Source: Phoronis australis
Taxonomy: Eukaryota; Animalia; Phoronida
Direction: 5' to 3'
Length of the DNA stretch: 64,000 nucleotides
Assembly: GCA_002633005.1 (NCBI GenBank)
Contig: NMRA01001032.1
Coordinates: 2,899-66,898 of the forward strand
This document shows positions 3,780 to 61,190 of this stretch, in pieces (within the stretch, counting starts at the first letter, position 1; every line of letters starts with the position of its first letter). The position numbers and the translations under genes are program-made. The notes below the pieces were generated by a model. That model did no database searches. It saw nothing but the letters and a program-made list of their open reading frames with translations, and had not been told where the DNA came from.

Positions 3780-3835
3780 ATGTTGTCTTGGCTTGCGTTG
3801 CTCTTAGTGGCCTCGACCGTAACCGGCACTGTCAG
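3780..3835 (+). CDS. Copy 1 exon 1, signal peptide MLSWLALLLVASTVTGTV(R)
   Basis: ATG followed by a hydrophobic core and AG|GTGAGA donor; same 56-nt exon at 46029-46084. An acceptor-like TTTACAG just upstream (~3761) suggests a 5' UTR intron. Confidence 0.8.
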
Positions 3836-4180
3836 GTGAGATTAAAATATTCTTAATGTTTAATCGTTAAATTTTAGCGTGACTTTATGTGACTGCGTTT
3901 GAAAAATGTACACATGAGAGATATAAAGACCGAAACGTTTTTTTACTTTAATTTCAAAAGGTGTCTTAAAACCCTGCAAAGCATGTGTGCAAAGCTCTCT
4001 TTTGTTTTTATTGTATATGAGCCATTTGAAATGAATAGTGAAGTGGGATCTGGTATCCAAGTGACCCAAAATATTAAACCCACATTCCGATTGAGTTTTT
4101 CAGATGGTGTCACGTTATTTGGTGACTGTAGTGGAGTGGCAACGACGGCTAAATACCCTTGAAAATGCATACATGCATAA

Positions 4181-4267
<87 letters not shown>

Positions 4268-7200: not shown

Positions 7201-10200
7201 AGATGCAGTACTTTATGTAATATCCTGCATTAGGGATTGTTTTTGAAATGTTCTATTTTAGCATGAGGGGCCACAAAAACTTTGAATTTTACGATTTTAA
7301 TAAATAAATAAAAAACTGCATGAACAAAAACGAATTTAGAAAGCTGTAAGTGCGTTTTAAAGTTTTCATCCAGCACATTTACACCAAGTGAAAAGTGGTC
7401 ATGTTATTGACATCGTTATTTTGTTTGCAATGCACCTTTCGTTTTCCTAAGTTTCACTGAAATGACATGACCACAAGACTGAATCAATTGTAGATTTGAA
7501 AAAAATCAAACATCAAATTGTTGAAATATGTCACTTTTTGGTTGCAAAAATGAAACCACAACACATCGTGAGAATGACCTAATCTATTGTGAAAAAGAGA
7601 TTAACTACCACAAAACAACTAATCGTAATAATGCGGTCGATGTAACGTAGAAGGAATTTAAACTAATAAATGATTTTCAACACTCTCCTCAGCTGTTAGT
7701 GTTTAAGTTCAAACATAACCAATAAAAGAGTTTCTCAAAGTCCTCAATGCAGGTATGATAAAGTATTCACTAGACGTTAACTAATTAGTGCCAACACTCC
7801 TCCTCACTTATGTTAACCGTTGAGCAACTAAAAAACTAATGTTTAACTAACTCCTGCCATGGCCCTGAGTTTTTCGAATGTTTCTCTTGGCAATGGCTTG
7901 GTCAACATGTCTGCTATCATTAGTGCACTACAACAATACATTAAGTCAATAGAATCAGTGCTGACCAAATCAAGGATACAGTGATGTTTGATTTCAATAT
8001 ATTTGGCACGACCATGAAATTTTGGATTGTGACACATGGATATGGCTGCCTGGTTATCCTCAAAAATAGTTTTTGAATTCAAGAACAAGTTTGGAAAGCC
8101 ACATGGCTTCCTGCGCAGCCATCCCCAAGGCAACATACTCCGCTTCAGCTGATGACAGAGCAACACACGACTGACGTTTGCTTCTTCAGCTAACAACTGA
8201 TACAGCCACATAAAAATATATCCAGATGTCGATCTACGTACGACTTCTCCTCCGCAGTCGGAGTTGGAATATCCTACATAGTCCAGGAACTCACTACTTG
8301 GAAATCGCAATCCAAAATTAACCGTTCCTTTCAAGTATCGCATTATCCGCTGAACAGCAGACCAGTGCTGTTAGGTTGGTTTCGAGAAGAACTGAGAAAC
8401 ACGACTCACTGCAAATGGTATATCTGACCTTGTCCACTGACTCAGATATAGTAAACTTCCAACAGCAGACTGATATAATTCCTGATCAAAAGTTTTAAAC
8501 CCATTTCCACAGGGTACTGACTGGCTTACACTCGCTCATACCAAACTTGTCCAGGATTTTGGTCGTGTAACCTGGTTGCGACAAACTAATTGAGCAATCA
8601 CTTGATAGCTGATCAATCACAACCCCCAAGAAGTATTTCGATTCTCTCATGTCAGTTACTTTGAATTTTTACCTTTATTACTAACGTAATCTCAGTTGCA
8701 TAATTATGTCATCGACATAAACTGCTAGCATAGGAGTACCACCATCCAACATATAAATGCATGTATCTTTAACTGAACACTTAAAACCAATGTTGTGCAA
8801 ATGCTCATCCAAAACAATGTTCCAACAACGAGGTGACTGCTTCAACCCATAAATACTTTTGTTGAGCTTACAAACAAGGTTTTCCTTGCCTTTCTCAACA
8901 AATCCATCGGGTTGTCTCATATACGCCTCCTCATGTAACACACCATTTAGAAATACAGTGTTCACATCCACCTGATGAAGCATCATATTTTGCTTTAATG
9001 CAAGAGCAATCAGTTCATGCACAGACTCCTGTCTCACAACAGGACTAAAATTGTCATCATAGTCCTGATCAAAACATGGTGAGAAACCCTGAGCCAGTAA
9101 GAGTGCCTTGTAACGCTGAACACAGCCGTCAGACCCAAGTTTCTCTTTAAAAACCCATTTACACCCAACAACAGAGCGATTTACGGGGGTTCAACCAATG
9201 TCTACACATTGTGTTCCCGGAGTGATTCCAATTCCTTGTCCATAGCAGATCTCCAATTTACCTTGTTAGGCCAGGATAATGCTTCACCCACCGGAATAGG
9301 TTCAGACTTATTTTGAGTAGCGTGAACCCACTCACCGTACCTATCTGGACTGTGTCTCTAGCGGTTCGACCTACGTAACTCTACCGAATCATCAGGAGTG
9401 ACATTCACTTGCGACTGGTTGTCATCCGCCTGTTCCACATTGATGCATTTCTCACTACCAATCTCGGACAGTGCCGTTGGCCTTTTATGCTCGTTCTCAA
9501 GTTCGAATATGTACTCGTCACACACAACATCACGAGTAAGAATGATCACGAGTTATATCATACACACGATATGCCTTACTATCAGGTGCATAACCCCGAA
9601 AGATGGTCTTTCTAGATTTTGAATCAAACTTTGAACGTTCGTCCTTAGGGACATGTGCATATGCTCTGCAGCCAAAAACACGTAGAATATCAACACTCTG
9701 TTTCTCGCCCATAAAGGCCTCAAATGGAGTTTGACCATTTACTGCCCTCGTAGGACTTTGGTTTCGCAAATAGGTAGCAGTGGAGACTGCTTCTGCCCAA
9801 AATTTCTGGGCAAAAACGATTCAGCGAGCGTTGAGCGTGCAGTTTCAACAAGGGTGCGATTCATTCTTTCGGCAACTCCGTTTTGCTCTGGTGTCTTCGG
9901 AACAGTAACTTGGTGTCTGATTCCCTCTCGTCTGAGGTACTGTTCAAACAACTTTGAAATGTACTCTCCTCCATTGTCAGATCTTAAAGTTTTTAGCTTC
10001 TGACCAGTAAGATTCTCAGCCATAGTATTCCATTCTAAAAAGGAATCGAATACCTGATCCTTAAGCTTGATGATGTACAACCAAGTATACCGGGAATAAT
10101 CATCGACAAATGTCAGAAAGTATTCACATCCACTGAGGGAAGCTGTGCTCATTTTACCGCAAACATCAGTGTGCACAAGCCCCGGAGGGACATTGCTACG

Positions 10201-13200
10201 ATGGGCCATGCCTACTGGAAAGCTGTCTCTGTGCAGTTTACCTTGAACAAAAGGCTTACAAACTCTCAGTTCACAATCCGACTTACAGTCAAGTCCAATT
10301 GTCATCTTATTGCGTATCAATTGTTTCAAACTTTGGCCACCTAAATGACCAAAAGGACGATGCCACAACTCAAACTGTAAGTTAGTCTCATCTACTGACA
10401 CAGACTCAGTCATGGGCTTTACATTTAAGTAATACAGGCCATTGACTTCACGGCCTTTTGCAACTTCTTTACCAACATCCTTCATAATGTTACATTCAGT
10501 ATCAGTAAATTCTATGGTACCAAGTTTGCTGGTAGCTTGTGAAACGCTTAACAAACTGAATGACAGGCCTGGTACAAACAGAACATTTTCTCCAACACAC
10601 ATTTTGTGCTATTCCCGTTCAGGGAATCAAGTTCGAGTTCAACCGCTCCTTGGCCGGTTCCTTTTAAAACACGTCCATCCCTAAGCGTTACGTCTCTATT
10701 GTCCTGCAGCTCCGTAAACTCGGTATATTTTGCTCTGTCATTGCATATGTGTGTTGATGCTCCCGCGTCTATGGTCCATTCACAAGTTGACCTAGCACCA
10801 GTAAGCATTGCATTTATCAGCAAGCCAATAGACACCTCACTGTCACTGTCTTTAGTCGCTATGTTGGCTGTATCGGCTTTGTATTTTGTATCACTGCCAT
10901 CTTTGTTTGGACAATTACGTTTTATGTGACCATACAATTTACATCCATAACACTTAGGACCCTTGTTTGACCTAGCCTTTTCGCGAGCGACAAGTGCTTC
11001 CCCGGCTGACTGTTCGCTAAGTTTCCGCTCTTCGTGTAATAAACGCTCAGTCACTAGTTCCATCCTAGGCACCTCCTCGCAAGCCTCCAATGCTGTAACC
11101 AACACACCATACATATTGGGAAGACTTGCAAGAAGATGCACAACACGATCTCGATCGTTTACTGGACCACCAATTACTGCAAGTTCGCTAAAAAGCTCAG
11201 TCATGGATTTGATAGGAGCACTGACGTCATCACCAGCATTTAACTTCATTGAATATAGGTTTTTACGTAAATGCAGCTCATTTGCCCAAGTTTTCTTTTG
11301 AAACTGGTTCTGAAATGTGTGCAACACGTCACAGGGATCCACAGGGTCTCCTAGTATGTACAACAGACTAGTGTCCACTGAGAGAACTATGGTAGCACGT
11401 GCTTTGTCCCTTCTTACATTGAATTTCTCAAGTTTTGAAGCATCATCTCCCGAAGAAGGAACTTCCTTACCCGCGACAATGTTCCACAGGCCATCTTTCA
11501 TCAGCGCCATTTGACACCGAACCTTCCACGTCGCATAGTTTTTACCAACCAGCGGTGAAATTACCCGAAATCACTGATTTTTCCGCCATCTTTGATTTTT
11601 CAAGTCCAAAACAACGTCACTAATCAACCTATTAGTGGCACACAAAAATCGTCCATAACCTTTTGAAATATGTCACTTTTTGGTTGCAAAAATGAAACCA
11701 CAACACATCGTGAGAATGACCTAATCTATTGTGAAAAAGAGACTAACTACAACGAAACAACTAATCGTAATAATGCCGTTGATGTAACGTAGAAGGAACT
11801 TAAACTAATAAATGATTTTCAACACAAATTCTGCAGACTTTCCACTATCAAAAAGTGTACTAACCTTTATTTTGTTGAAATCTGTAGTTTGCAGGTATTT
11901 GTCTAAATACAGAGACGTCTCGAGAAGGTCCCACGTAACCGCCACTGTTAAAATACACGCCCATTTCGTATGTGATAGATACTGGCTGGTTAACCGTAGA
12001 AAGTTTTACATTTGTTAATGCAGGATGGAAACATGAAGACATGACGTATTACTACAAGAAAGTTGAGGACCATTACTGCCACTATGATTCAGAAGAAGCC
12101 ACCGGAATTTCGTCAGCGGATTGCGAGAAATGGCACGGTAAAGGCGGGCCGATGCAACTCAATTCACAGTTAGAGGTACCGTACCGCCAGGATTGCACAT
12201 CCCTACACAAGAGTTAAAAGGGACTCTTTTTTGGCTTTGACTCACTTTGAATAATAGACCGGGCTCAACATATGAAACCAAAGGGTACGACCGTGAACCC
12301 AGTTATCTTCTCTTTCCCTAATTTTACAGTCAAGGGGGGAACGTGGGTTAAAAAGGTAGAAGGGTGTAGGAGTCGAGCGGGCTCAAGGATAATCTTACGT
12401 ACTTCCATTTACAGGAAGCCTTCCACCTGTTCCCGAGAGAGATGAAATACCTTTGTGAAGACAAGACGAAGCCTTGGAATGGTTACAAGCCTGATTACAA
12501 CGGTCCAGTGGAGGACAGGTACAAATACTGAACACACGATTTCCCCATACAGTTAGCAACGATAAACAAGAGCTTTGGAACAGGGAAGGGCGAACAGCAA
12601 CGAATTTTCTGGAGGTTGTCGTTGCGTAACATCCTCACTAATAGTCGCCTGACATATGCGGGGTTGCTGGGGGGTTGGTTCAATCTGGGTCGAAAATTTT
12701 TTAGATTGACGGGCGTGTAACACCCTCACTAAAAATCAGGCAAATAGGTGCGCAAGAACGTGATGTCAATATTTGTGACAACTGTAAGGAATTCTATATA
12801 GGACTCGCACAGAGATGCGTCTGTGACAGGTTGAAAAAACATCTCACCTCAGAGAAAAGTAACATATATAGGCATTGTATTAGCTACAATCACCAATTTC
12901 AAGAATGACGATCAATCACCAGCATTTCACACGTGATTATATTCTATTGTTGGCACTTGAATAGTCGGTGCCAAAATATAAGACAACAAATTTAATTTTC
13001 AATAAATTCGAAATTGTCACAACTGTTTCCTGTTGCGTGAAATAATGGACTCAACTAAGTTCTCTGATTCTCCCACGCATTTATGCATTTGTTTACTCAC
13101 AAGCGTTGTGCTTGTCTATCATCATATCGTTATAATGCTCTTCTCTTTGACTAATAACATTTCATAATAAACTATATAAAACAACGACCTTATTTCAGTG

Positions 13201-16200
13201 AAAATGAACAGGAACTTGGTCTTTAGGTTAGGGGCCTTGCATGAAAAGATGCCTATTTATTTTCGAGACTATCATATCGAGAATTCAACGGAGGGTTTGC
13301 GATCAGTTTGTATCATAAGCAAAAGCAGAATTAGTAACGAAAATCCACAGTAAAGCAAATACACTATTTTCACAAGTCCACAAATGTGTAGAAAACTTAA
13401 TGTGCTGGACGAGTGGTCCCTATTTACGTAATCAGCCCATAATGTCTGCACTTCGCAAGGTTTTCACATTCTTTAGTACGATCGCAATGTGATGTCGAAA
13501 GCTATCTTTAAATTCAGAGTAACAAAATAACAAAATAAACATTCTCAAATTACTGATACAATCTGTTATTTGAAACATAAAAGAACTAAACAAATGTTTT
13601 ATACGCTACTGAATGAAGCGGGCCCCCAGTAATTGCAATAATGTCTTTGAGCCTCCAATATTATAAACGGTCCAGTGAACTGACGTGTCATTTTTGATCG
13701 CGTACGTAACACAGAGTGTCGAATAAACATACAGATGCAGCTGCTGTGGTTTCCAACATGGGGTTATGTATGGGGAGTGTCGACGCATACTGGACCCACC
13801 GCTACCGATTAAAGTCCATAAAATACCGTATTTGGTATTGGTAATACTTCTTAGCAATAGTGAAGACAAGCATGAAGCGCATTTGCTGCAATTTATTTTA
13901 CAGAATAAGCTGCAGTGTCTTCCAGCAGTACAAACTTCGCACTGATGAAGACTATAATCCGACTGAGGAAGCTCGCGCCAATCGCGCCTCTCAAACAGCA
14001 CGCGGGAGTAGTTTCACTGGCTACTACAAAGAAAACGCCAAGAAACCTTATCTGGCTATATCTGCACCAGTAACAGGTACAGTACCGATTTTGTCCTCCG
14101 CTGCGCCTTCATGACGCTCCGTTCGTATCGTACTTCCAACGATGTTGTTGAGTAGCGGGGAGGGCATATATGCAGTTTTGTAAAAATTGAGTACTTTGTG
14201 ACAGATTTTTGCAATTTAGTACACTGTCAGGTATAAGAAAAGAAGATTTAAAAAACAAAGTGTTCTGACTCCCTGGTGATCGCTAGGCACAAAATTCAAT
14301 GTGGTTGCCGCCAGAATGGAAGTTGGCGTATTTCGGCTATTATTATCACTAGAACAAATTATGTCATGTTTTCAATATTTTTGGGGGCGGGGAGTTCATT
14401 TCTGGAGTTCAGTTTAAGTTTTGAGGTCAATTCAAATGCAAAGTGATAATCTCAAGGCAAATGTCATTCACAAATAACTCAAACTTATGTTTGTTCTCAT
14501 AGACGTTACATCGTTTATTTAATGGGTATATCGATTTGATTGGCTACACAAAATCCTAAAATTACCATTTTTCAAAACCAGATTTGCACAGCATAGAACT
14601 TTATTTAGCTGACTGTGAAAATACTTGTAGATTGAGACATGTAGAAACATCCTCCTTCACTTATAAAAATGGCACATGTGTTACTACTGGGAAGAGTAGG
14701 GAATTTCTTTCTCGTCAGTGGCTGTATCGCCTATATCTCTTAAAGATCTTCTTAAATCGGAATGGTTTATTTTAAGGAACGTGACAACGAATGACAACGG
14801 CTTCCAAACGGATCCAATTACCGCTGTGCCTCCTAGTGGTAATTTAACTACCTGCGTTTTCCTTCTTGTCTTAATGTGTATCCATTGACGGACATTTCTG
14901 AAACAGCAAATTGATTTCTATAAAAGAATCAATGACACGTTTCTATTCTCGGAAGGGTTGAAGATATTGTATGCTATTCAGTGGCCATAATGATTATTTG
15001 CCACTCTGTTTGCGTTATCAGCCAAATAACACTAAAGATTATGTGTTCCAAATGGGACGAAGACGTTTGACTGGGTCCAATATCTGTGTCTCCCTCTTGT
15101 GGCAATTAATTTTTCAACGGTTGAATATAAGCTCTTGATGGGTTTAAAGGAATTTTTGGGAATTAAGTTATAATGATTCAGACAACAGCATCGGTCATGT
15201 TTCAGATGGATTTGACCTAGCTTGTTTCCCCTTGTGAACTTCCTTCTGTTTTCTTGTTTTTGTTTTCTTTGTCGTCTGCTTTTCCCTGTCCTCCAAACGT
15301 TTTGAAAATCATGTTGAAACGTGGCAGGTGTGTTTCTATTCTGAACTGCTTTGCACCCCCTAGAAGTTATTTCTAAGTTAACGAGCATTGGCCCGTTTAA
15401 GTCGGAATTTTTTAAAATGATGACGCAATGCACACCGAGGGGTTCATTTCAACGTTCTGCAGTTGCAAATAAAACGTTGCAAAGATGTTCATCAGGCTCA
15501 CCTTCACACAAGAGTAATCTTTAGCAAATGATATAGAAGCCGTTAAAGTATGCGATTCCCGAGGCGGCGGGGGCCAATTTGGTTCCCCTTTGACAAACAC
15601 ATATCTGGTTACAGGTTGGGACGCTTTGTTGGCGAATGCGATCTTATAGAGTTGCCCAGGACTCCGTGATATTTCCAGCAGGCGGCATTACTGTTTGTAG
15701 CAGAAGAACTGCAGCAGTTTGGGTCTTTTAGGGTTATCCGATTCTGAGCCATTTTACCCGCGGAAGTTACAACATTTCCTTTATTCGTTAGTCAGCACTA
15801 AAATAATGAGCAGACGCTCTTCATTTTTGGAGTTAATATAATCGGCTTCCAGTGGCCGCATTTGATTGAAAACCGTAACAAACATTAGAAGGCACTAGAC
15901 ATTAGGTTTTGCCTGACCGTGCACACACCACTGGACTTACGGTCTTTCGTCCACTCTGAGGAGATTTGTATGAGCAGAATAAAAGGCTGCTGGATATTTC
16001 AGGTCAGAAGTGCCACACATGGCAGAATGAACTTCATTCTGTCTCATTTTTGCTCCGCTCGCTTCCACCGATCAGCAAGTCAAACTGAAAATTCGGTGGC
16101 ATAAAACGCAAAATTGACACTTATCAACTCAAAGCCACCACTTCTTCTACAACGTACAACAAGCGATTGAAGTACTGCTTCCTATATGCTGGCGTATGTT

Positions 16201-19200
16201 AGTGATAAATTTGAGCTGTGCATAACTGTGAAAATAACAAAAAAAAATTGCGGGTTATTGCCAGGATAAAAACACGTTTTATTATTTCCTGATTAAGATT
16301 GATGTTTGAGATGCAACTCCTGAAAATCTCTATTATTTCTGATAAAATGGCATGTTGTGGGAGTCTATTCCAGAGTAAAACAGTAAATGGGAAGAACGAG
16401 TTTGCGTAGTATACAGTGGGAATGTGTGTTCTTTCAAAGGTATGAGAGTGGGCATTGCGTGATCTAGAAATATTTAGGGGTCTAGGGTATGTGTTAGGAA
16501 TGGCAACCAGTGTGTACACTGCCTTGTACATGTGAAACCGTTTCTTTTGAGCACGTCTTTCTTGAAGAGTGGGCTAGGTGCGAGTGGTGAGCATAGACGT
16601 AACAAATCAGCTCTGGAGTGATCATAATGGATGAACCTGGCTGCTGAACGCTATATTCTTTCTATCTTGCCAATATTGGAGCGTGTGGAGGAATACCAGA
16701 GGAGTGATAATCAACTGTGCGCCTCATCAATGAAGTGTAGGCCAAGGTGTTTGTTTCACGAAGTGCACATTTGAGGTTCCGCTTAATGAAGCCAAGAGTT
16801 TGTTTGCCTTAGAGATGATTGCGTCTATTTGAGTGTTCCATATTGAATTATTGGTAAGAAAGAGCCCAAGGTAGGGTGCATGCGAGTGGTGAGATGTGAA
16901 GACTGTGGCAGTATATCCTGGGGTAAAGTTTTCTATGGACACGTAGAATATTGCATTGGAAAACGACGAGATCCGATTTCCAGGATTTTCCCGGTAGGCT
17001 AGGAAGTCTAAATCTTTTTGATATTTTTTGCAAAAATGGGGGAAGCAATACGTCTTTAGAGGATTGAATCATCGAAAAAGACACGGACGTATGAAACAAT
17101 GGAATCAGGAAGGTATTTAATATATAGTATGAGGAGTGCAAGACCAAAGGCAGAACCCTGGGGCACCCCTGACTGAACTGGAAAGGAATTTGAGAACTTG
17201 CCATTGACGACGACACTTCCTTGTGGATGCTCGAGACACGACAAATATACTTCTATAGATTGCACACGTGTGGTCCAAAGTGCTTACATCCGTCTAGGTT
17301 TTATGAAATTCTGGATTACTTGAGGGCTGTTCGAAATCGCAGCAGATTAATCAGTCGCTTATCAACAGTGTAACAATGGTAGAAGGAGTTGCCGTTTTAA
17401 AGAAAAGTTTATATGCTGGCGAAGTAGTGGACTTACAACATGGTCGTAACTACCAACAAACCACAATCACTTAACCTATTTGCAATGTATACCATAAAAC
17501 TGCCGCCAAATTCTATTATGTGCAAGGTAGTCGTGGCTTGTGTACCACCTCATTAATTTAGAGAGTGTCCAATAGACTTTAGGGATATATACGCACTAAG
17601 TACAGTTCGGAATACGCATTGGAAAATTGTAATCAATTTCCACACCATATTGGATTAGTACGCTCTTGCTCCGATTTTGCCTGAAATTCACCCTAGGCCG
17701 GGTTTCTTTGAAGAGGCTGAGTGAAAACCAAACATGGTGGTACTTTTGATTTAGTCAGCAAGTCGTTCAATGACTGAAAATTTGTTCAGACTTGTTTGGC
17801 TATTGTCATCCCGAAATTCGCACCTGAAGGCAATTGAGGTCTCTGACAAGGACGACTTTTGTTCTTCATTATAAAGCTCATGAGTTGAGGAAATTTCTAT
17901 TGCTCGAAAGCTACATTTGATATGTATGAGGTAGCCCACTGCCAACTCCATGTTCTGATATGATGTATACATCTCTTCCGGCTTATAATTTTCTATCTAT
18001 CATTAACCCTACATGAAATTGTTACTGCATGTGTAGAGATCCTGTTCAACGAAGAGCGCAAAGCCATTGGAGTGACCTTCTGGGACGAAGAAAATGGGCA
18101 GACTAAAAAGGCATTCGTCCGTAAAGAAGTCATCGTTGGTGCGGGCTCTTTCGATACACCACATTTACTTCAGGTACACTTGATATTTACATATAAGCTC
18201 ATGCATTTCATGTTTTAATAACAATAACAATAACAATAACAATAACAATAATAATAATAATGTTTATTGTACATCTTAGGCTTTGCCTACTCATACATAT
18301 ATACATAAATTCAAACATATATTCAGAATATTTGCACGGAGAGCAGTTCTTCTCTTAAAGCCATAGCCCTCTGAATATACAATGCGAGGCGCTGGATGCT
18401 GTCATGATTTTTCTGTTGGAATAACCTAACAAGAGAGTAGTTAACACTGACAAGCTCTGGAAGAAGATTTCGTGTAAGCACTTCAAGAACAGGGCATCGA
18501 CACATGAAATGAGGCCCATCTTCAATTTCACCCAGACAGCCTATGCCGCATATTCTCTCACCTCTAGGAATACCCATATGTCTCCCTTTCTCTATATTAA
18601 GTGAGTGAAGTGAACACCGAAATTGCGCAAGTATTTTTCTTGAATAAGCGCTTAAACAATTCACATATTGCTCGCTGACAAGATCACGTTTAATAAGACT
18701 ATAAAATTCATATTTATTTGAGCTATCTATTTCCAGTTGTCATTCCTGTACGCCATAATCCAGTAATCTCTGATTAAATACCATAATAAACTCAGCACTA
18801 TTGCCTGGGCCAAATAACCACACTTCTCCATAGCCGTACCTATACAAAATTTCTTTGACACGGTGTGCCCAGTTACAATTACCATTTTCACTTTGTTCCC
18901 TTAGCATACTATAACATTTCAGTGGGTACCTATGTTCTTCCATATCCAGAAATTTTGTCCAATTGATGATTGGTTTACACATATAGTTTGTAATTAACAA
19001 TTGTCTCCCACATTCACCACGAGCCATAGCATTTGGCGTTTTAATACTCAATCTCAGAACATATTTACAGAAATCATTATGAACTTTTTTTAATAAATTC
19101 ACGCATTGATGTTTCTCATATTTCTGCACCATATGTTAACATGGGCATTATCATAGAGTCAAAGAGTTTAAAATGCACTCCATGGGAAATACAGTTAAGT

Positions 19201-22200
19201 TTTGACAGAGTGGCTTTAATAACGTTCATTGCTTTTCGAGCTTGGCTTGCAAGTACTCTACAACACTCTGTCCATTTAAGTCTGCAGGAGAATGTGACTC
19301 CTAGGTACTTGTACTACGATTTGGTATCTACTTTCTTATCGCCAAAACCCACCTTTCATTACTTGAAAGTATGCTCCCTCGCTTAAATACCACAACATTC
19401 GTTTTATCCAAATTAACTTGCAAATTCCAGTCTCGACGAAACTTTTCGAGGACATTGAGCTTCATCTGTAGCCCAGCAACGGTATTCGACACCAGCACTA
19501 AATCATCAGCAAAAAACAAAGAACCTATTTCACAACCCTGAGAGACACGTATACCTCTGCCTACATTTTCTCTAATATCTGACACTAATGTGCTAACAAA
19601 CACCGAGAACAGCCTGGCATTAAAACACATCCTTGCCGGACACGAACTGTACAGTTGAAATATGGTGTGGTCTGGGACTGTACCATAACACACGATTGTA
19701 TAGAGTCGTATGTACTGCGCAAAATGTTAAATATTTTTCCATGCAAACCTTTGGTTAAAAAGGCATAAAATAAACGGGAAATATCTACACTATCAAATGC
19801 CTTACTAAAATCAACGAATGCACAATATACTTTCCCATTCCGTTTAGTGACATGTTTCTGGAAGATACACTGTAGGTTAAAAATGTTATCGATTGTAGAA
19901 TACCCAGTCCTAAAGCCTGCTTGTTCTTCCGGGATACATTTCGTATTATTCGACCATTCAATTATACGAGAATAAAGAATAGTTGTAAAATTTTTATTAA
20001 TACTATCTATAACGGAGATCCCTCTGTGGATTAAATATGTCTCCTTCTTTGATACTTTTTGACCATTGGGATGGATAATGCCCGGTATGTACATGTATTA
20101 TGACGTATGACATTTCACGAGTAAACTATTTTTCATCCACTATCATGTGCTCTTTTATAGTTTTATTTCAGTGTTCATAATGCTTACAATTGATTGACTT
20201 CGCCGACATTGTTGGGTCAACCAGCCAAGACATCTCAAAGGCTTTTGGTGACGACTTCCTGCTAACAAACCAATCAGATGCTGGTTGACCTTACAAAACC
20301 GGCGAAGTCAATCAAGTGTAGCCAAATCTTTTAAATATCCCGTGAAAGACAGAAGCAACCAAGAGTTTTCATATATGCAGATGACGACGTAAAACTGATT
20401 TAAAGAAAATCCTCCAGAAGCACTTCCTGAAAATGTAGGCCCGATTATGCGTGCCTGTTGTTACCGAGGTTGGAATTGACAGTTTGCAATCTAACGAATA
20501 AGCCTAGTATACTAATTATTATATTGTTGATAGAACAGATGTTAAGTAAGTAGTAAACCAACCAACCAACCATCTAACCCATTTACCAGCCAACCAACCA
20601 TGCCAGCCAACGAACAACTGACGAAGCAACCAACCGAAGGACATTATACGTTTCCTTCGTACATTCCGTGTTATGAAAATCTTTCGATTGAAACTTGCCT
20701 GAAATACATAAATTTTGCTGCAGGTGAGCGGAGTCGGGCCTAAAGAGCTTCTCAAAGATATCGGCGTAGACCTTGTTGCTGAGAACAAGCATGTGGGCCA
20801 GCATTTATGGGACCATATCTCGGTACCGTACGTTCTAAAACTTAGTTCAGCCTCCGATGACTTATGCTGCGGCACTCCACCAAAAGTTGACATTGACGGT
20901 ACCGAATACAATACAGGGGATTTGGCCAGCATCAACGGTCCATTTTCCTGGATTTTGCATTATCGTTCTAACGTTTCCCGTGTTCCCGCTTCGATGTCCG
21001 ACATCCAGCTGTATGTGATGGGAAACTCCAAGCTATTTGACGAGACAGGTAATGTTATGACGATCTACAACAACGAGTCTAAAGGTCAAGACTGGGATTG
21101 TGTCCCTGTAATTTGTTGCTTAATACTGTAGCAGTCTAAATCACCTTCATATTATTTGGGAATCTTCTCATTCAAGTCTCTATAGTTCGGTGACACCTCT
21201 TTGTTTACACAAACTTCGTTGAAACACGTCTAGACGTTTTGTTTGAAAGCTTGATACTGGTTCTGTCTTAGTGTCAGAGTAATATCCTTTCTTCAGGTCT
21301 GCAGCTATGTAGTTAAACACCGAGAGACATAACAAACAAACAAACAAACAAATTAAAACACAAGCTATGTTTTGAGACTGCAGTTATCATTATCAGGAAA
21401 TAAGTTGAATGATCATATACATACCGCAATAGACAGTGAAATACACGTGACAGCGGGAAGAGGGTCATACAAGCAGAGAGTGTGAATGCAACACAATGTA
21501 GGACGCCCGCAACCCTATAGAAACAGAGCCAGAGTGCTCATTCAACACAGTTTTTTTGACTGATCAATAGTGATTCAGGGGACAGATACCTTGTGAGTCT
21601 GCTGCTGTGTGGAGACAATAATTCATCGTCTCAGAAGTGTCATAACTAGGTTAAACTCCTCTTTGGAAACGACGCGCTTACAATAATTATTTTGTCGTCG
21701 TTTGATTGGTTGATCTAATCACACTGCCCTGACACCTTGTGGGCAACAAAATATTTCAGGCTTTCTTTTCTCCAACATTGAAATTAAAATTCTTAATGAA
21801 AATGAAATTGTATTCTTGAACACTTTGTTCATTGGACTGGATAATGAATTACCCAAAGTTCTTATATCACCTCACGCCCTGAGGTAGCCGCGGACATGTA
21901 AGATAGGGGACATGTGTCCAATGATTGTCCATCTGGCCGTCTTTTGACGTTAGTCTTCATACAGCTAGCTGAGTGGTTACCACTACATGTAAGTGTGATC
22001 CTCACTATTTGGTATACACCTTTGTTGCTCCATAAAATAAATGGATATCGTTTCATTCAATTATTCATCCCCACATTCATTCATTATCCGTGCTTTCTCT
22101 CACTTATTAAGACATTCATTCATTCATTCGTTCGTTGTTCACAGGTGCGCTATGCACAGCTGACCCTCCTGAATACGAAGATGATGCACAAAACAAGCAA

Positions 22201-25200
22201 TACGAGGACTCCAGCGATACACTCGAAGGTATATCCAAATTTCGTCAATTTCTTGACCAAGATATTTTACTAACAGGTGTATTGAGTGAAGACGAGACAT
22301 GAGCAGTTTCGAAATATAACCGTCCTTTATAATATCTCTTGGTGATCTATTCTTGCTGACAAATATGCCAGAAGTTTGCACGAGTCTCTGCCAAATCAAT
22401 GAATAGAACTCTCCGTAAACAAGGTTATACATGTAAATATTGAATTGAATTCCAAGTCCCACGCGAAACCCATACATTCTAGCATTAAGGCTTGCTTTCC
22501 AGAGATTTCACATGACTAACATTGGGAATAGCTGGTTGTCCACTCGGATTAGTTTTGATTGATATCTTTTCAGTTTCAGTCTGAGAGTCACTTTTGACAA
22601 CCTATAAAACTGTATATTACGAGTTTTTCAACAAGGCATATTTGGGTGCTAAAATGATATTTTTGTCTAAGAAATATTGGTTATGTAATTAATAAAGATA
22701 GTTCCATCGAAGTTAACCAAAATTTATGCACATGTACTTTTAAATCCTGAGTGTCAAACTTGTTTACATGTACTTTTGATATCTACGTGTATTTTTAGAT
22801 GATGCTTACCTCTTCTGGTCTATGGTCAGTGTCCTGTAAGGCTTCTAAAAATTCTGATATCATATTGTAACCACCAATGATATGAATAGATAAGATCATG
22901 TGGTTTTTATTAGCTAATTAGCTAATTGTTGACTGAGTACATCGTTATAATTTGGCAGAAGTCGGGTGTTGCAGCACCTGTAGTCTGTCGTTAACAGAAA
23001 ACGTTGTTTTTGTGTGTTGCGGCGAACATTTTACCCCGATGATGTGGAATAGAACCAGATGTCCCACTTTTAATACAGATGTTCTGCTTTTCAATCAAGT
23101 TGTCCCGTTTTCTCATTCTCGAATGCTGATAGTTATGCAACTGGTGTTCCAAATAACAGTATCTCTTTCTTATGAATGTTTGATTTTCCAGAAGCCATTT
23201 TCCTTAGTAATATAACAATTATAAAAATATTTTCCAATGTCTCTTGTTCATTGTAACACACCTCACTAATTTTAATTATTGAAAAATGGGTTTATTCCTA
23301 GATTTCGCTTTAATGTAATGAGCTATCCACGTGCTTCAAATCTACAAAAACATGTTTTGCCATGTTTATCTTTCGGTAAACCCTTATCCCCATATTTCGG
23401 ATAGATAATTAGGGTATTTGGTTTATCACGGTTTTTGTACATGTAAGTGTCATTGAACACTGATTTTTACTAAAAAATGTAGATGTATCAAACGGATGAA
23501 TGCCTGACTAAATTCTTCACAGCAACTCTGAGACATTCATTGTCTAAAACCATTGTCTTTCTCCGGTAGCAATCCTTTGAATCTGATGGCTTAATTAGTT
23601 ATTTATGTAATGTCTACCTCTGTATCATTTTCTTTTTTATCACATCCCAAATTCGTTGACATTTCAAGCTAATTAGTTGATTGTTAGATAAATAATGAGT
23701 CAATTAGTGCATGCAAAATAAAATTTGTATATGAAATTAATTTCTTATCTTTTGTTTCTAGTATAATCATACACCATCGAGAGTTCATGGAGGACTTTTT
23801 AATATGACTCTGATGCAATGCGCTTGAAAGCAATTCGGTGAAAAACGGAAGATTTGCGAAAAGTTTTACTATAGTAAATTTTTCACTTTCCCATTGCCTT
23901 AGTGTGATGAAAAAAGACATTCCATTCCTAGAGTTCTACGATAACTTTAAAACAATGTGTATACCTGTGAGAAAAATATCATTTTGCTTTCTGATATTGA
24001 CTTCTTTAGGTACTATTCGTATCATCGATCAGTGGCCTGAGTATCGCGGCCATGTCAAAGCAGTCACTTCACACATATTTGACAAGCCGGAGATAGAGTA
24101 TGGCTGGGGATACACTGAAGATGGGGTACCGACAGAAGAGTTCAAGAAGGTCTCCAAGCTTGTCCGAGATCAAATTCGCCTGTTGCGCAACATGTTCTTT
24201 GGAAAAAACGTCAGCAAAGAGTTAAAAGAACTGGTTTTAGACGAAGTTGCACCAGGGCTGGATATAGATACGGACGATAAGTTGGACGCATGGATGCGTG
24301 GAATGCTGGTGTCTGCACTTCACCCTGTCGGTACATGCAAAATGCCAGACTGTGCTGATGAGTTTCTACAAGTAAGAGGAGTTTCCAATCTCAGAGTGTG
24401 TGATGCCTCAGCCTTCGCAACACAAACCGACGGAAATCCAGCCGCTACTCTATTCGCTATGGGCGAAAAACTGGCAGACATGCTCAAGTTCCAATATCTG
24501 AAATACGTAAACGTGGCAGTTCGTAAAGAATTAGCGATTCCAAGAGATAAGAATACCTTCAATTCCGAACTACCCCCCGGACATGCTGCAGTTGACATGG
24601 GTCCAGTGAAGTCAGCTTCAAATTGTATGGACGTATCAGTGTCCTCTGAATGGATTTCAACAGGAAAGGGTACTTCAGCTTTGATTGTCAAATGGTCTTT
24701 GGTATGCGTCAAGGACACCAATGAGCGTCAGATTGCAGACTTAGTAGCTATGGCTACATTGGGAACTGATCCAAGAGACGGTTGCAATGCTCAAGGTTAT
24801 CCAAAGTTCAACAGACCAGAAGCGACTCCCGATCCAAGAGAGCCAAGCCCAAAGCATAAAATATCACGTCACGTTTTTGCCGTGTGGTGCCAATCGTTCC
24901 CTGGTGTGGATCCCGATACACTATGGACACAAGCTGGTTCGTGGAACGGAGAAGGTGGCAGGTATGTGCTCAGACAATTTAGCTGAAATGGTATACTATA
25001 TGTAAAGCAACATGAATTTTAATATGTATATAGGTTGGTCAAGCGCATGCAGGACCAGAGCGACAAGTCTCATGCTGTTTTACAATACATTTACCTATAA
25101 ATAATTACCATAATCTACTTGGAAATAAAAGAAGTCTGTGATACTTATTATAGAAGACAAGAATCCAAACATAATATTTCTGTACGTCACCTGTTTCTTA

Positions 25201-27345
25201 ACATCAGTTTACGCATTCGTACTTATTATTACAGAATTCCTGGGTCTGAGCACTGCTTCACCCTAAACTGCCAGCCGGAGATGTGCTCCATTCTTGTACA
25301 CGTGGATGACTCCAACCGGGAATGGATTTACAAAGAGCCCAACATAGACCTTCCATTGGTGGACTACTATTCGACAAAAAAGGTGGTCGACCTGAACCCA
25401 GGATCTTCGGCATTCTTCCGCACGGGATCGATGATCTCCAATCCAGGTACTGACTGGTATGAGGAGCTGGCCGGATATCTCCTCGAGAGTGTGTATTGGA
25501 GCTCAGGTCGTCGCTTGTCCCGTGAGTATCCCCCGCTCAATACACTCCCCGGCTGGTGGACACAGCTGTCCAACGGCCTTCTCTACTACGAAACTAAGAA
25601 CCAGATTTATTCAAGTGAACACGTGGCATCTTTTGACCTGGATAATACCATCAGCAAAACAAAAAGTGGCGAAGATTTTCCTGTCGACGAAAATGACTGG
25701 ATGTTCACGTCTGACAAAGTCAAACCCAAAATACAAGATAACAAGAACAAGGGCATCAACAACGTAATCTTGAGCAACCAGGTAAAACATTCAGACGTAA
25801 ACCAGCTACATCTACATTTTCAGGGTATTTTAAGGCAACGATGTGATATCCAAAAAAGATCTGGTGGGTTTGAATATTAACCACCTAATAACGTAAGTGA
25901 GCGGATCAATTCCTTTTAGTAATAATTCAAACAATATACATAGGCTGAATTCAAACGAGGTGGCTAAACTTTGTAAATAGTTCACTTACGTAAAGTTTTA
26001 AAGTGTGTGCAGGCTCACTTCGGTGGCGGTCTTGGTAAGGCCTACAGATCATCCATATAGAATGCAGCAGATGCATTTTGTGCCTTTTGCTGATTATTAT
26101 AGACTTCCATTCTGCAGTTAAGTGGGGTAGGGTAGAATGCAAACTAAATGATGGTTGCACTAACTCCGTCTCAGTGATTGTTCAAAAATATGTAGAGCCT
26201 CCCTTGGTAACTGTACATCATATCCACCCCATTACGTATTTGTTGCAGGCAGGCATCGGGAGCGGCTCTCAAAATAAAGACGAGTGGATGTCAAAGATTG
26301 AAGCCATCACCACTGAACTGGGTGTACCCATGTTTGTCCTAGGTGCCACAGGGTACAACAATCTTCGCAAGCCTGACCCTGGAATGTGGACATATTACAG
26401 GCATGAGTATATTTATCTTGTGCACGTTGTTTTTGGCCCCATGGATTTCAGATTGACGGTGTTTCCTTCAAATTTTGCTTGCCTAGCATATAAAATATGT
26501 AATAAAGATAGCTAAATGTAGTTTAGAAATTTCTCAGTATTTCAGTTAATAACAACTTTTTAACACTGCAAATCTCTACTTTTCACATTTTTTGCACACC
26601 GTCTCTGCTTAATATTATGTTTTATCTAATTTCCCTTCGAGGACCGCGTGAAAGACTATTTATTCGCTTACCTAAATGTCAGAATTAAATGTTAAGGTTA
26701 CGGGAGACAAAAAATGAGGGGGGTCGAAATTCAAACCAGATGCTGGACTGCACGCTCTGTTCTCTAAAATATGGTTAGGAATTATATTTTATATCCTCTT
26801 TGGCATTATGGATTGTCAAAAATGGAACTTGTAGGGAAACATCGAAATCAAAATAAAAGGAAAACGAAAAGATCATTTAGAGAACTGTCACAGATTTTGA
26901 GATTTCGTCGTGAACATTTACATTGAAAAAAATAAAATATTGTTGTTCTTAATAGCGTTGTTTTCATACAAAAGTGTCTTTACCTTTTTGTAAATATCCT
27001 TAAAATGAAATACGGTAGTCATTTGACCCAATTAATAGGAGAATGGTATAAAATGAACGATTGTTACTTTCACACAGTTGAATTCTGTTAGCTTTGTTGT
27101 TTTTTTGTGTAAAATCTTTACAATATTTTTGAATGTCCTACTTAACTTACATACAATGTCCTTACAGCTGCACACTGAATCAGTTCAAGACCATTGACAA
27201 GTCCACTGCGGTGTATGTTGGGGATGCGGCTGGTAGACCAGGAGATCATAGCGACTCGGACAAAGTGTTTGCCGAGAACGTTGGTATCGCTTTCCACACC
27301 CCTGAGGAGTACTTTGAAGGACAGAGGGGACACACTGAACTTTAA
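3780..27345 (+). CDS. Gene copy 1 (13 coding exons, 1076 aa): signal peptide + GMC oxidoreductase + SRPBCC/START-like + PNKP-like HAD phosphatase + HTEL
   Basis: Exons 3780-3835, 5203-5321, 6829-7080, 12024-12175, 12415-12518, 13904-14076, 18037-18173, 20724-21048, 22145-22228, 24010-24961, 25235-25781, 26249-26400, 27168-27345 join with matching phases. Introns are GT-AG except one probable GC-AG. Total 3231 nt, ending TAA. GMC motifs appear in canonical order. Exons 1-8 are confirmed by the paralog downstream. Confidence 0.85.
4191..4267. repeat. (AC)n(AT)n compound microsatellite in intron 1
   Basis: Directly visible. Confidence 0.98.
5203..5321 (+). CDS. Copy 1 exon 2, GMC FAD-binding Rossmann start
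   Basis: SVDDGMWCDFVIVGAGTSSLGLASRLSEIPSWKVCVFERG; CAG acceptor, G|GTAAGT donor. Confidence 0.92.
6829..7080 (+). CDS. Copy 1 exon 3, GMC N-terminal domain
   Basis: GPMESGMESWY...IYIPRFRGRGGTSRVYGAIARRA...WPEG, a variant of the GMC RGxxLGGSSxxN motif; conserved in the paralog. Confidence 0.92.
7519..7682 (-). repeat. Copia 3' LTR
   Basis: TG...CA ends; adjacent CTCTCCTCA is the polypurine tract on the minus strand. Confidence 0.95.
11661..11824 (-). repeat. Copia 5' LTR
   Basis: Seven mismatches to the other LTR by my count; followed on the minus strand by PBS-like GGTTATGGAC. Confidence 0.95.
12024..12175 (+). CDS. Copy 1 exon 4
   Basis: GWKHEDMTYYYKKVED...WHGKGGPM matches GMC GWxxxxxxPYFKKxE and HGxxGP motifs. 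Confidence 0.92.
12415..12518 (+). CDS. Copy 1 exon 5
   Basis: EAFHLFPREMKYLCEDKTKPWNGYKPDYNGPVEDR (GMC DxNG motif); paralog exon at 54946-55049. Confidence 0.9.
13904..14076 (+). CDS. Copy 1 exon 6
   Basis: ISCSVFQQYK...ARGSSFTGYY...ISAPVT; paralog exon of the same length at 56904-57076. Confidence 0.9.
16141..17270 (-). mobile_element. 5'-truncated decayed LINE (CR1/L2 group), RT 3' part
   Basis: SGVPQGSAFG, FFDD and C-terminal NSFFPFTVLLWNRLP; many frameshifts. Confidence 0.75.
18037..18173 (+). CDS. Copy 1 exon 7
   Basis: EILFNEERKAIGVTF...RKEVIVGAGSFDTPHLLQ matches GMC EVIxxAGxxxxPxLL. Confidence 0.93.
18217..20100 (-). mobile_element. 5'-truncated LINE (RTE-X-like) with (TTA)n/(TTGTTA)n tail, copy 1 intron 7
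   Basis: EEQAGFRTGYSTIDNIF, AFVDFSKAFDSV, RQGC, LFFADD, C-terminal HSLNIEKGR...C..C...HF...CP; AATAAA then a TTA tail on the minus strand. Absent from copy 2 intron 7. Confidence 0.85.
20182..20323. mobile_element. Small hairpin MITE (Tourist/PIF-like ends)
   Basis: TTGATTGACTTCGCCG...GGTCAACCAGC pairs with GCTGGTTGACC...CGGCGAAGTCAATCAA; right end TGTAGCC. Confidence 0.65.
20724..21048 (+). CDS. Copy 1 exon 8
   Basis: VSGVGPKELLKDIGV...VGQHLWDH matches GMC SGIGP and VGxNLxDH motifs. Confidence 0.93.
22145..22228 (+). CDS. Copy 1 exon 9, acidic 84-nt symmetric exon
   Basis: Pyrimidine-rich CAG acceptor, open phase 1-1 frame GALCTADPPEYEDDAQNKQYEDSSDTLE, G|GTATAT donor. Not confirmed by the paralog within the window. 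Confidence 0.65.
24010..24961 (+). CDS. Copy 1 exon 10, GMC C-terminal domain plus start of SRPBCC-like region
   Basis: PEYRGHV...PEI, HPVGTCKM, VRGVSNLRVCDAS, GNPAATLFAMGEKLADML; reading frame stays open ~150 aa further to an AG|GTATGT donor. Confidence 0.92.
25235..25781 (+). CDS. Copy 1 exon 11, SRPBCC-like C-half plus N-half of PNKP-like phosphatase
   Basis: Phase-2 CAG acceptor matches the exon 10 donor; VASFDLDNTISKTKSGEDFPVDENDW (HAD motif I in PNKP context) and ILSNQ (motif II). Confidence 0.88.
26249..26400 (+). CDS. Copy 1 exon 12, PNKP-like phosphatase
   Basis: AGIGSG...KIEAITTELGVPMFVLGAT...RKPDPGMW (motif III). Donor is CAG|GCATGA, or a weak GT at 26407. Confidence 0.88.
27168..27345 (+). 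CDS. Copy 1 exon 13, phosphatase motif IV and HTEL-stop
   Basis: YVGDAAGRPGDHSDSDKVFAENVGIAFHTPEEYF, then EGQRGHTEL-TAA. Confidence 0.92.
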
Positions 27346-32918: not shown

Positions 32919-33025
32919 CCTATACATGTTCTGTTTATGGTGAGAAGTCATTGTGTACACTGTTTCTGCAGAACTGTTTGAAGTACTAGCCAGGATCCCA
33001 AAGAACATCTTCCCTTCTACACTCA

Positions 33026-46028: not shown

Positions 46029-46084
46029 ATGTTGTCTTGTCTTGAGTGGCTCTTAGTGACCTTGGCCATAACCAGCACTGTCAG
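46029..46084 (+). CDS. Copy 2 exon 1, signal peptide MLSCLEWLLVTLAITSTV(R)
   Basis: Homologous to 3780-3835, including the donor and intron start. Confidence 0.8.
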
Positions 46085-61000: not shown

Positions 61001-61190
61001 GACTTGTGCTGTGGCAATCCACCAAAAATTAACATTAGCGGTACCGAATACGAAACACAGAGTGTGTACAGCATCAACGGTCCTTTTACCTGGATCATGA
61101 ATTATCGTTCTAACGTCTCCCGTGTTCCCGTTGAGATGACCGACGCCCAGCTCTATGTGGTGGGGAATTCCAAGCTATTTGAAGTGACAG
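46029..61190 (+). CDS. Gene copy 2 (partial, exons 1-8), paralogous secretory GMC oxidoreductase continuing beyond the window
   Basis: Exons 46029-46084, 47838-47956, 53730-53990, 54599-54750, 54946-55049, 56904-57076, 60178-60314, 60866-61190. Same phases and lengths as copy 1 (exon 3 is 9 nt longer); no stops or frameshifts seen. Confidence 0.9.
47838..47956 (+). CDS. Copy 2 exon 2
   Basis: WCDFIVVGAGTSSLSLAGRLAEIPSWKVCVFERG. Confidence 0.92.
49139..49773. repeat. Apparently identical 316-bp tandem duplication around a single N (49457)
   Basis: 49139-49454 matches 49458-49773; probable contig-overlap artefact. Confidence 0.9.
49800..50940 (+). pseudogene. Polinton/adintovirus major capsid protein pseudogene
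   Basis: FEFFIFGSGDEYIDLASIELYARAKI, YRAYLE, LHIAIFMQDWYLLNNV..KIGLVRSK, LAHIKVLEK.FAKYPLRR, NLFLGQ, AYNGSYSKNPLNF, EI..SRNVLLDF across frames. Confidence 0.8.
50942..51260 (+). pseudogene. Adenain-type cysteine protease remnant
   Basis: Follows the capsid gene directly; MRTAEIREILAND start, SSTVCGEC catalytic-Cys region, NDKLV end. Confidence 0.5.
51685..51950. repeat. Dispersed repeat, second copy at ~57705-57955
   Basis: Shared CCTGATGAAA.TACCATCTCG.AACGTCTA and TTCCAGAAAAATCACAAA.TTCACGATTTTTGAAATAC. Confidence 0.75.
52715..53192 (+). mobile_element. 3' fragment of an RNase H-bearing LINE with TSD
   Basis: VIVTDSQSML...IFSPDHAGVVGNERADKLAG (RNase H motifs), (CCAGATAA)2 tail, flanking TAAACGTCATTG / TAAACGTCAATG. 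Confidence 0.75.
53730..53990 (+). CDS. Copy 2 exon 3
   Basis: GPMESGMEKWY...RFRGRGGTSRVYGAIARRA...WPEG. Confidence 0.92.
54599..54750 (+). CDS. Copy 2 exon 4
   Basis: GWRHEDMTYYYKKSED...WHGKDGPMQLNSQLK. Confidence 0.92.
54946..55049 (+). CDS. Copy 2 exon 5
   Basis: EAFILFPREMKYLCEDKTKPWNGYKANYNGPVEDR. Confidence 0.9.
56904..57076 (+). CDS. Copy 2 exon 6
   Basis: TSCSIFQQYK...ARGSSFTGYY...VSAPVT. Confidence 0.9.
60178..60314 (+). CDS. Copy 2 exon 7
   Basis: EILFNEERKAIGVSF...RKEVIIGAGVFDTPHLLQ. Confidence 0.92.
60866..61190 (+). CDS. Copy 2 exon 8
   Basis: VSGVGPKELLKDIGV...VGQHLWDQ...GNSKLFEVT. Confidence 0.92.

Follow-up and report, generated by a model that had tools for sequence, protein, structure and literature searches.

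A conserved fusion of a GMC oxidoreductase, a START-like domain and a PNKP-type phosphatase, predicted to reside in the lumen of the endoplasmic reticulum

One spliced gene joins an oxidoreductase to a phosphatase

We analyzed a 64,000-nucleotide stretch of DNA from the phoronid Phoronis australis (contig NMRA01001032.1, positions 2,899 to 66,898), which we will call the window. A sequence-only reading of the window had described a DNA 3'-phosphatase domain resembling that of PNKP, sent to the lumen of the endoplasmic reticulum (ER). We found that the three PNKP-like exons are the last sixth of one larger spliced gene. Its protein contains, in order, a hydrophobic leader, a GMC flavin oxidoreductase, a degenerate and then a whole domain of the START/SRPBCC fold, a PNK3P phosphatase, and the C-terminal residues HTEL. 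This conserved GMC-SRPBCC-phosphatase fusion is our main finding, and the sequence-only reading missed it. The parts of the gene are:

3780..27345, plus strand: whole gene, 13 coding exons, 1076 amino acids, no internal stop
3780-3835, 5203-5321, 6829-7080, 12024-12175, 12415-12518, 13904-14076, 18037-18173, plus strand: coding exons 1-7
20724-21048, 22145-22228, 24010-24961, 25235-25781, 26249-26400, 27168-27345, plus strand: coding exons 8-13
3780..3835, plus strand: exon 1, with the start codon and a hydrophobic leader, a signal peptide predicted by hydropathy
5203..24497, plus strand: GMC oxidoreductase domain, residues 27-630, exons 2-10 (Pfam GMC_oxred_C, E = 6.5e-19)
24498..24860, plus strand: linker domain X, residues 631-751, folded in the model of homologue P0165
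24861..25532, plus strand: SRPBCC/START (Bet v1-like) domain, residues 752-884, split by intron 10 (24962-25234)
25587..27318, plus strand: PNK3P-type HAD phosphatase domain, residues 903-1068, exons 11-13
27331..27345, plus strand: C-terminal HTEL and stop, a predicted ER retrieval signal (stop codon at 27343-27345)

The 5' exons were traced upstream from the GMC exon, guided by a tandem paralogue that is described below. Exon 11 starts at 25235, which is 350 bases upstream of the phosphatase domain, and its phase-2 acceptor fits the donor at 24961 of the GMC exon. Eleven of the 12 introns are GT-AG and one is GC-AG. The predicted protein aligns end to end with homologue P0165 (75% over 1066 columns).

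To check the gene model, we used stranded RNA reads with the same species label; about one-fifth of each raw run was read, and 11 introns, all but intron 7, were testable. The reads fall on the exons of the 13-exon gene and confirm 8 of the 11 testable introns:

3835>5203 (4 reads), 5321>6829 (6), 12175>12415 (16), 14076>18037 (16), plus strand: joints in the 5' half
22228>24010 (11 reads), 24961>25235 (8), 25781>26249 (13), 26400>27168 (21), plus strand: joints in the 3' half
26401..27167, plus strand: GC-AG intron 12, 767 nucleotides

The eight reads across the GMC-to-phosphatase joint (24961>25235) come from two of four runs. For the GC-AG intron, 21 reads skip 767 nucleotides, with 6 letters of slack, and its removal preserves the register with the homologues. 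Introns 3, 5, and 8 have no joint among the RNA-read joints listed. A caution is that the reads match the window at just 90-99% and so must derive from different alleles or from a closely related copy. Among the differences between the reads and the window that were listed, 35 are exonic: 20 are silent, none affects a catalytic residue, and one changes HTEL to HIEL (30 of 30 reads in one run).

The phosphatase exons might instead encode a nuclear DNA 3'-phosphatase of their own, or be what is left of a PNKP, beside an unrelated GMC gene. Exon 10 can read through to a stop at 24986, and there is low read depth in intron 10 in two of three raw-read runs. But spliced reads cross the joint, the SRPBCC domain straddles it, and the fusion is also encoded in a single frame both in annotated genomes and in Logan contigs 3.4-4.1 kb long. 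We consider the stand-alone gene to be almost certainly wrong, and there is hardly any doubt that the GMC-SRPBCC-phosphatase fusion is real. If intron 10 is retained (24962-24986), the frame would stop after eight residues and would give a GMC-plus-linker form without HTEL; the read depth for this is low.

The phosphatase domain keeps its catalytic residues and has lost DNA-backbone contacts

The motifs of the HAD phosphatases that the sequence-only reading had listed are all present, and they lie in one frame after splicing. These are FDLDNT (with D919 at 25635 and D921 at 25641), TKSGEDF, SNQ|AG (split by intron 11), RKPDPGMW (K1008 at 26369), VGDAAGRPGDHSDSD (D1037 at 27223), and TPEEYF. 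Pfam's PNK3P model (PF08645) matches each of the three exons (E = 2e-12, 8e-9, and 2e-15). The structural model of homologue P0003 is similar to mouse PNKP (3zvl; Z = 27.4, root-mean-square deviation [rmsd] 2.2 Å over 181 aligned residues, 36% identity). The absence of FHA and kinase domains also held up: when four canonical PNKPs with FHA, phosphatase, and kinase were compared to the 64 kb window, they matched at the phosphatase exons only. Similarly, the homologues score 136-142 against TIGR01663, below its cut-off of 502.8.

The catalytic and phosphate-binding residues of human PNKP, its DNA-backbone contacts (K183, V184, K226, K303, and K304), and its stacking residues (F185 and F306) are named in the portion of PMC13640680 available to us. 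D919, L920, D921, S965, N966, K1008, and D1037 in the window correspond to the sites of human D171, L172, D173, T217, N218, K260, and D289. Across 22 related animal fusion domains, D921, S965, N966, and K1008 are conserved in all 22, while D919 and D1037 are conserved in 21. The domain is thus not catalytically dead, so far as its residues can tell: D919, D921, S965, N966, K1008, and D1037 are all kept. The phosphatase is probably active.

The DNA-backbone sites are different. The sites of human K183, V184, and K226 are E931, D932, and S974 in the window, and the loop with K303/K304 is absent. We counted residues at the three sites K183, V184, and K226 that are named in PMC13640680. An acidic residue is present at these sites in 16/22 fusions, as compared to 4/119 ordinary PNK3P domains and 1/39 ordinary domains with a short loop (see below). 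A basic residue is present in 6/22 fusions, 103/119 ordinary domains, and 30/39 short-loop ordinary domains. Also, the net charge of the phosphatase domain, per 100 amino acids, is -2.8 in the fusions and +2.4 in ordinary domains. The stacking residues have fared better: the F185 site is F933, which is aromatic in 22/22 fusions, and the F306 site is H1045, where ordinary domains have either His (59/119) or Phe (57/119). In short, the DNA-backbone lysines of PNKP are lost and the catalytic residues are retained.

The sequence-only reading had also pointed to a short loop between GDAAGR and DHS, lacking the basic stretch of animal PNKP, as a sign of a non-DNA substrate. The loop is indeed short, with 18 residues in the motif IV region. 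But among 119 ordinary PNK3P proteins examined, 39 of the 108 with a readable motif have a loop of the same length, many of these carry a kinase, and one is letter-for-letter identical over most of the loop. We therefore rejected the length of the loop as evidence against a DNA substrate. The broader claim, that a repair fold was repurposed for a non-DNA substrate, is favored by the loss of the contacts at K183, V184, K226, and K303/K304. It is disfavored by scores above a DNA 3'-phosphatase cut-off and by one relative with a nuclease domain, which are discussed below. On balance, we lean towards a substrate other than long DNA.

The GMC and START domains

The GMC region has both the N- and C-terminal Pfam domains and the GMC fold. 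The main sites are:

5243, plus strand: GAGTSS motif for flavin adenine dinucleotide (FAD)
7026-7028, plus strand: Tyr125
24321, plus strand: His572
24435, plus strand: Asn610

The FAD motif is GAGTSS in the window and in several homologues, and other homologues have the full GxGxxG. H572 and N610 align with the His/Asn pair of BetA and choline oxidase; such catalytic pairs are tabulated in the part of PMC3541233 that was accessible. The catalytic His and the motif D[GA]NP are each present in 38/38 GMC domains from the family. At the site that is usually a flavin-lining Asn (63/78 generic GMCs), the window has Tyr125, and all 20 family rows have Tyr. This could alter the chemistry or the attachment of the flavin. 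The GMC domain is the best-kept part of the family, with a mean identity of 73%, as compared to 67% for the phosphatase. There are about 16 conserved cysteines in the family.

Because the family's GMC domain is most similar to choline oxidase and BetA, both by fold and by profile, we considered whether the protein might form the osmolyte glycine betaine from phosphocholine, with the phosphatase acting first and then choline being oxidized. In the full-length model of P0165 (pLDDT 87, pTM 0.86), the GMC part matches GMC enzymes with Z of 44-47 and rmsd of 2.1-3.5 Å. The top match is choline oxidase (4mjw; Z = 46.7, rmsd 2.5 Å, 504 aligned); alcohol oxidase, glucose dehydrogenase, and formate oxidase follow at Z = 45, so the lead is under 2 Z units. 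The shared His/Asn pair and the mostly marine hosts would also fit. On the other side are two residues of choline oxidase, Glu312, whose role in substrate binding is taken from a title cited in PMC10980864, and His99, the site of the flavin link. The Glu312 site is Ser364 in the window and, among 20 family rows, is Ser in 15, Ala in 5, and never Glu. The His99 site is Val, Ile, or Leu, with no His in any of the 20. BetA profiles give 170-236 bits, below their cut-offs of 605-732, and the family's clade is separate from animal CHDH (see below). With these markers absent and these cut-offs missed, we ruled out that the domain is a choline oxidase, and we find betaine synthesis very doubtful.

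The SRPBCC domain lacks a Pfam match; PF10604 matches the additional copy of the protists and rotifers and no other. In the model of P0003 (pLDDT 87), this part has a helix-grip fold and is similar to 3cnw (Z = 12.9, rmsd 2.5, 128 aligned), to 7tmu, to PYL9, and to many other SRPBCC structures. Across 22 rows, near-invariant residues (W, Y, K, K, and R) include W760, Y829, K833, and R847. Linker X had no match among those listed in the structure searches, in which X was not modeled alone. In the protists, linker X is similar to the SRPBCC domain that follows it (hhalign probability 67%, E = 5e-5, 109 columns); in animals the similarity is weak (5%, E = 0.008, 35 columns). Linker X is likely a shortened, degenerate copy of the SRPBCC domain.

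Distribution and phylogeny of the fusion

Searching for exon 11 among longer proteins gave 16 matches. Of these, 13 belong to the family, and 11 of the 13 contain GMC and PNK3P. Searching by profile extended the family to five Mytilus species, Diplonema papillatum, and bdelloid rotifers, as well as to relatives with GMC only, and a representative search added Paramoeba aestuarina. Paramoeba carries a kinetoplastid symbiont, which might be the source of its sequence. The same fusion is thus found in the octocoral Dendronephthya (67% identity to the window's protein), the crinoids Anneissia (65%) and Antedon (64%), the brittle star Amphiura (59%), five Mytilus (60-62%), Diplonema (39%), and Paramoeba.

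The domains occur in three layouts. The animals and one Diplonema model have GMC-X-SRPBCC-PNK3P. Paramoeba, the second Diplonema model, and P0052 have a further C-terminal SRPBCC domain. The bdelloid rotifers have GMC-PNK3P-SRPBCC-SRPBCC, and their terminal domain corresponds to the middle SRPBCC domain of the animals (hhalign 99.4%). The catalytic residues of the phosphatase are intact in Diplonema. In the rotifers the phosphatase is degenerate, with DLEQT or DLDET at motif I and with the later motifs lost. In Rotaria sordida, a canonical FHA-PNKP exists alongside a piece of the fusion.

The members P0058-P0063, P0207, and P0213, including one from Acropora millepora, contain only GMC, with leaders and with KDEL-like C-terminal ends of RDEL, KAEL, KTEL, KVEL, KSEL, REEL, or RKEL. 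They appear to form an ER clade of GMC proteins without the phosphatase.

In a tree of GMC domains (54 rows), the family forms a single clade of 39 rows with support of 99, apart from animal CHDH and from bacterial rows. The window's protein groups with the octocoral clade (SH-aLRT support of 99). The fused state requires four changes on this tree, and GMC-only proteins are sister to fused proteins in three places. One old fusion followed by repeated loss would be the simplest reading. The echinoderm proteins are scattered over the tree, which leaves room for paralogy or transfer. The patchy spread, together with the 59-67% identity of the cnidarian, mollusc, and echinoderm copies, raises the issue of gene transfer as against repeated loss.

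We also compared the phosphatase to animal PNKPs in a tree of 145 rows, built with a quick method. In the best tree, the phosphatases of the animal fusions form their own clade (SH-aLRT 100) outside the animal PNKPs and near the protist fusions and green algal rows (support of 85-89). A joint clade with animal PNKP was not rejected by the approximately unbiased (AU) test (p = 0.25; 52/145 rows), so the placement outside the animal PNKPs is that of the best tree.

As for a prokaryotic or viral source, pattern scans of genome contigs (22 stretches) and metagenome contigs (44), with just two short patterns each, found no relative. Also, 59 viral loci match the phosphatase only, with no GMC or SRPBCC frame in the flanks examined, again with two short patterns. 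We rejected these sources, although with so few patterns the absence is weak evidence.

The distribution bears on another possibility, which is that GMC and START handle a lipophilic alcohol (a sterol, terpenoid, or polyketide) and that the phosphatase is an accessory or regulatory part that can be lost. The three placements of GMC-only proteins beside fused ones, the decay of the rotifer phosphatase, and the stronger conservation of GMC would all fit, and START/SRPBCC folds are known to bind small ligands (as with the matches to PYL and PR-10 proteins). But the catalytic residues of the phosphatase are near-invariant in the 22 animal fusions and intact in Diplonema. Also, the near-invariant START residues Y829, K833, and R847 are polar or basic; if their side chains point into the pocket, they would be better suited to an anion than to a lipid. 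We consider a lipophilic substrate with a dispensable phosphatase to be quite unlikely.

Predicted location in the ER lumen

The frame ends in HTEL, as previously noted, and the rest of the gene adds a leader. Residues 1-19 are the sole hydrophobic window in the protein (by hydropathy, with no dedicated predictor), and homologues with intact starts carry similar leaders. In humans, HTEL and HIEL are described as serving CES2 and CES1, respectively, for retrieval to the ER, although some secretion can occur in spite of signals of this kind (PMC11845761, in part). HSEL is treated as KDEL-like in the section of PMC13324453 that we drew on. C-terminal xxEL or HDDL is present in 13/18 animal fusions and in 6/8 of the GMC-only relatives listed, as compared to 0/119 ordinary PNK3P proteins and 1/80 generic GMCs (for xxEL/DL). 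The conserved cysteines fit a lumenal location. As a prediction, then, the routing to the secretory pathway stands, and the protein very probably resides in the lumen of the ER or of the secretory pathway.

Proposed function

A phosphatase frees a hydroxyl and a GMC enzyme oxidizes CH-OH, so the two chemistries chain naturally. Our best reading, which we hold with about even confidence, is that the fusion is an ER-lumen enzyme that dephosphorylates and then oxidizes a small, possibly nucleotide-like metabolite. The fusion protein would reside in the ER lumen, its phosphatase would remove a phosphate from a small, non-polymeric metabolite, the START pocket would serve for holding or handing over, and the GMC flavin domain would oxidize the alcohol that the phosphatase had freed. 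This order is suggested by the two intact, chainable sites, by the pocket domain that lies between them, and by the retention of the trio through the reshuffling of the layouts. That both enzyme domains act on one pathway is, in our judgment, an even call.

Because the base-stacking aromatic is kept and the backbone clamps are lost, we rank a nucleotide-like substrate first. This might be a nucleoside 3'-phosphate or the end of a very short oligonucleotide. Lumenal 3'-phospho-nucleotides such as 3'-phosphoadenosine 5'-phosphate (PAP) or coenzyme A (CoA) are, we presume, candidates. The fusion itself gives a handle on the substrate, which must suit both active sites.

Several findings weigh against the proposed enzyme. 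First, the homologues score above the equivalog cut-off for DNA 3'-phosphatases (158.5 and 161.7, versus 107.65 for TIGR01664); P0165, P0021, P0051, and P0052 pass, while P0053 and P0356 are below. Second, acidity is not confined to the phosphatase: per 100 amino acids, the net charge is -3.5 in the GMC part and -6.3 in the SRPBCC part, so the acidity of the phosphatase may partly reflect life in the lumen. Third, the 22 animal fusions are related, so the counts from them are not independent. Fourth, P0052 (1571 amino acids, from a JGI contig) has an additional N-terminal Endonuclease_NS domain, a non-specific DNA/RNA nuclease (E = 1.5e-25). Fifth, given the GMC-only relatives (in Acropora, rotifers, and KDEL-ended forms) and the decay of the rotifer phosphatase, which lacks the second Asp, GMC does not always need the phosphatase. 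Sixth, the GMC domain has roughly 25% identity to each of its relatives with a solved structure, which names no substrate. Finally, xxEL is absent from 5/18 animal fusions and from 5/5 of the protist or rotifer fusions listed.

Some of these findings would fit a role in the secretory pathway in which both domains are active on the breakdown products of nucleic acids, or on separate substrates, with the phosphatase trimming the 3'-phosphates of DNA or RNA fragments for digestion or salvage. The fusion would then do no more than bring the two enzymes to the same place. PNKP is the closest family and the closest fold, the stacking residues F933 and H1045 are kept, P0052 has a nuclease at its N-terminus, and the protist forms, which have a leader and no xxEL, may be secreted. 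Also, the substrates of T4 Pnkp include both RNA ends and 3'-dTMP (excerpts of PMC3592404). Yet the backbone-binding lysines are replaced, often by Asp or Glu, the nuclease fusion is a single sequence, and the animal forms carry an ER retrieval signal. We view this role as unlikely, and we prefer the dephosphorylation and oxidation of a small metabolite.

More speculatively, and with somewhat less confidence than in that reading, we tentatively suggest that the fusion is an old eukaryotic assembly line in the ER lumen, retained by soft corals, echinoderms, mussels, and protists from two other supergroups. It would be built from a DNA-repair phosphatase retooled to unmask a nucleotide-like or secondary metabolite, a new Tyr-type GMC that oxidizes this metabolite, and a START domain that binds or converts the product. 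If so, the lumenal pathway would be one not described before, and no earlier PNKP-type phosphatase would be known to work outside of nucleic-acid repair. The PNKP fold would have been re-used for small-molecule chemistry, and this would point to a new ER pathway in marine invertebrates.

Other features of the window

The window also contains the first eight exons of a tandem paralogue, including its own leader exon, which we identified by self-comparison. The 3' half of the paralogue lies beyond the window. Six of the seven aligned pieces have 66-85% amino-acid identity to the first copy, with no stop flagged, and the introns are still alignable at 66-75%. A Copia-type element with long terminal repeats (LTR) lies in intron 3 of the first copy, whereas the corresponding intron of the paralogue lacks it. 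Its terminal repeats, at 7501-7683 and at 11644-11825, have 92.9% identity, and opposite-strand reads fall on it in two of three runs. The introns and the LINE and LTR pieces mark the DNA as eukaryotic. The remaining features are:

46029..61192, plus strand: tandem paralogue, first eight exons
7501-11825, minus strand: Copia-type LTR element with broken gag, integrase, and reverse transcriptase frames
18326-20097, minus strand: broken reverse transcriptase (RVT_1) of a long interspersed nuclear element (LINE), in intron 7
32990-34742, plus strand: broken LINE pieces, with RVT_1 and zf-RVT matches
49139-49454 and 49458-49773: perfect 316-base tandem duplicate, a recent duplication or an assembly artefact
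37183-37939: assembly gap of Ns
49717-50699, plus strand: broken frame with no clear Pfam match, presumably resembling Polinton-associated F54H12.2-like proteins
30841-31823, plus strand: broken frame with no clear Pfam match, which we take to resemble a Cys-rich (CxC) DNA transposon protein

Comparison with known systems

Phosphatases of the PNKP type are known for healing the ends of nucleic acids. Among the publications listed, judged by their titles and the openings of their abstracts, we found none that describes the GMC-SRPBCC-PNK3P fusion, its GMC clade, or a lumenal PNKP-type phosphatase; subscription journals and supplementary tables, which may list such genes, were outside of our search. 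The portions we saw of a report on a GMC in a dinoflagellate MAA cluster (PMC9298759) and of a survey of DNA repair in bdelloids (PMC6264785) show no link to the fusion. The component folds are known; the architecture, the GMC clade, and the lumenal PNKP-type phosphatase are new to print as searched. In the databases, proteins of the family are named as uncharacterised, PNKP, ecdysone oxidase-like, choline dehydrogenase-like, or L-sorbose dehydrogenase. This is a trap for annotation: the Mytilus copies were deposited as "PNKP" or "choline dehydrogenase-like."

The phosphatase shares its fold, its catalytic and phosphate-binding residues, and a stacking Phe with that of animal PNKP (PF08645 and TIGR01664; mouse structures 3zvl and 3u7e-h). 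Unlike animal PNKP, the fusion lacks FHA, the kinase, and the basic loop, and it has a leader, HTEL, and GMC and START in front. Fungi, green algae, and large DNA viruses have 3'-phosphatases with a short loop, which share the 18-residue motif IV region, and the green algal members of this group are among the nearest to the fusions in the tree (support of 85-89). In contrast to the fusions, these proteins keep basic backbone sites (30/39), and none of the 119 ordinary domains has an xxEL end. The kinase-less or short-loop enzymes are presumably Tpp1/ZDP-like.

With choline oxidase, BetA, CHDH, and other His-Asn alcohol oxidases of the GMC family, the fusion shares the GMC fold and the His/Asn pair. 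It differs from them in lacking Glu312 and His99, in having Tyr instead of the flavin-lining Asn, in its approximately 16 conserved cysteines, and in forming a separate clade. The START part has the helix-grip fold of SRPBCC/Polyketide_cyc2 proteins (3cnw XoxI, 2le1, PYL receptors, and PR-10 enzymes; Z = 12-13), but with 12-21% identity and, in the window's copy, without a Pfam match. The ER carboxylesterases CES1 and CES2 share just the HIEL/HTEL signal with the fusion; their fold is unrelated.

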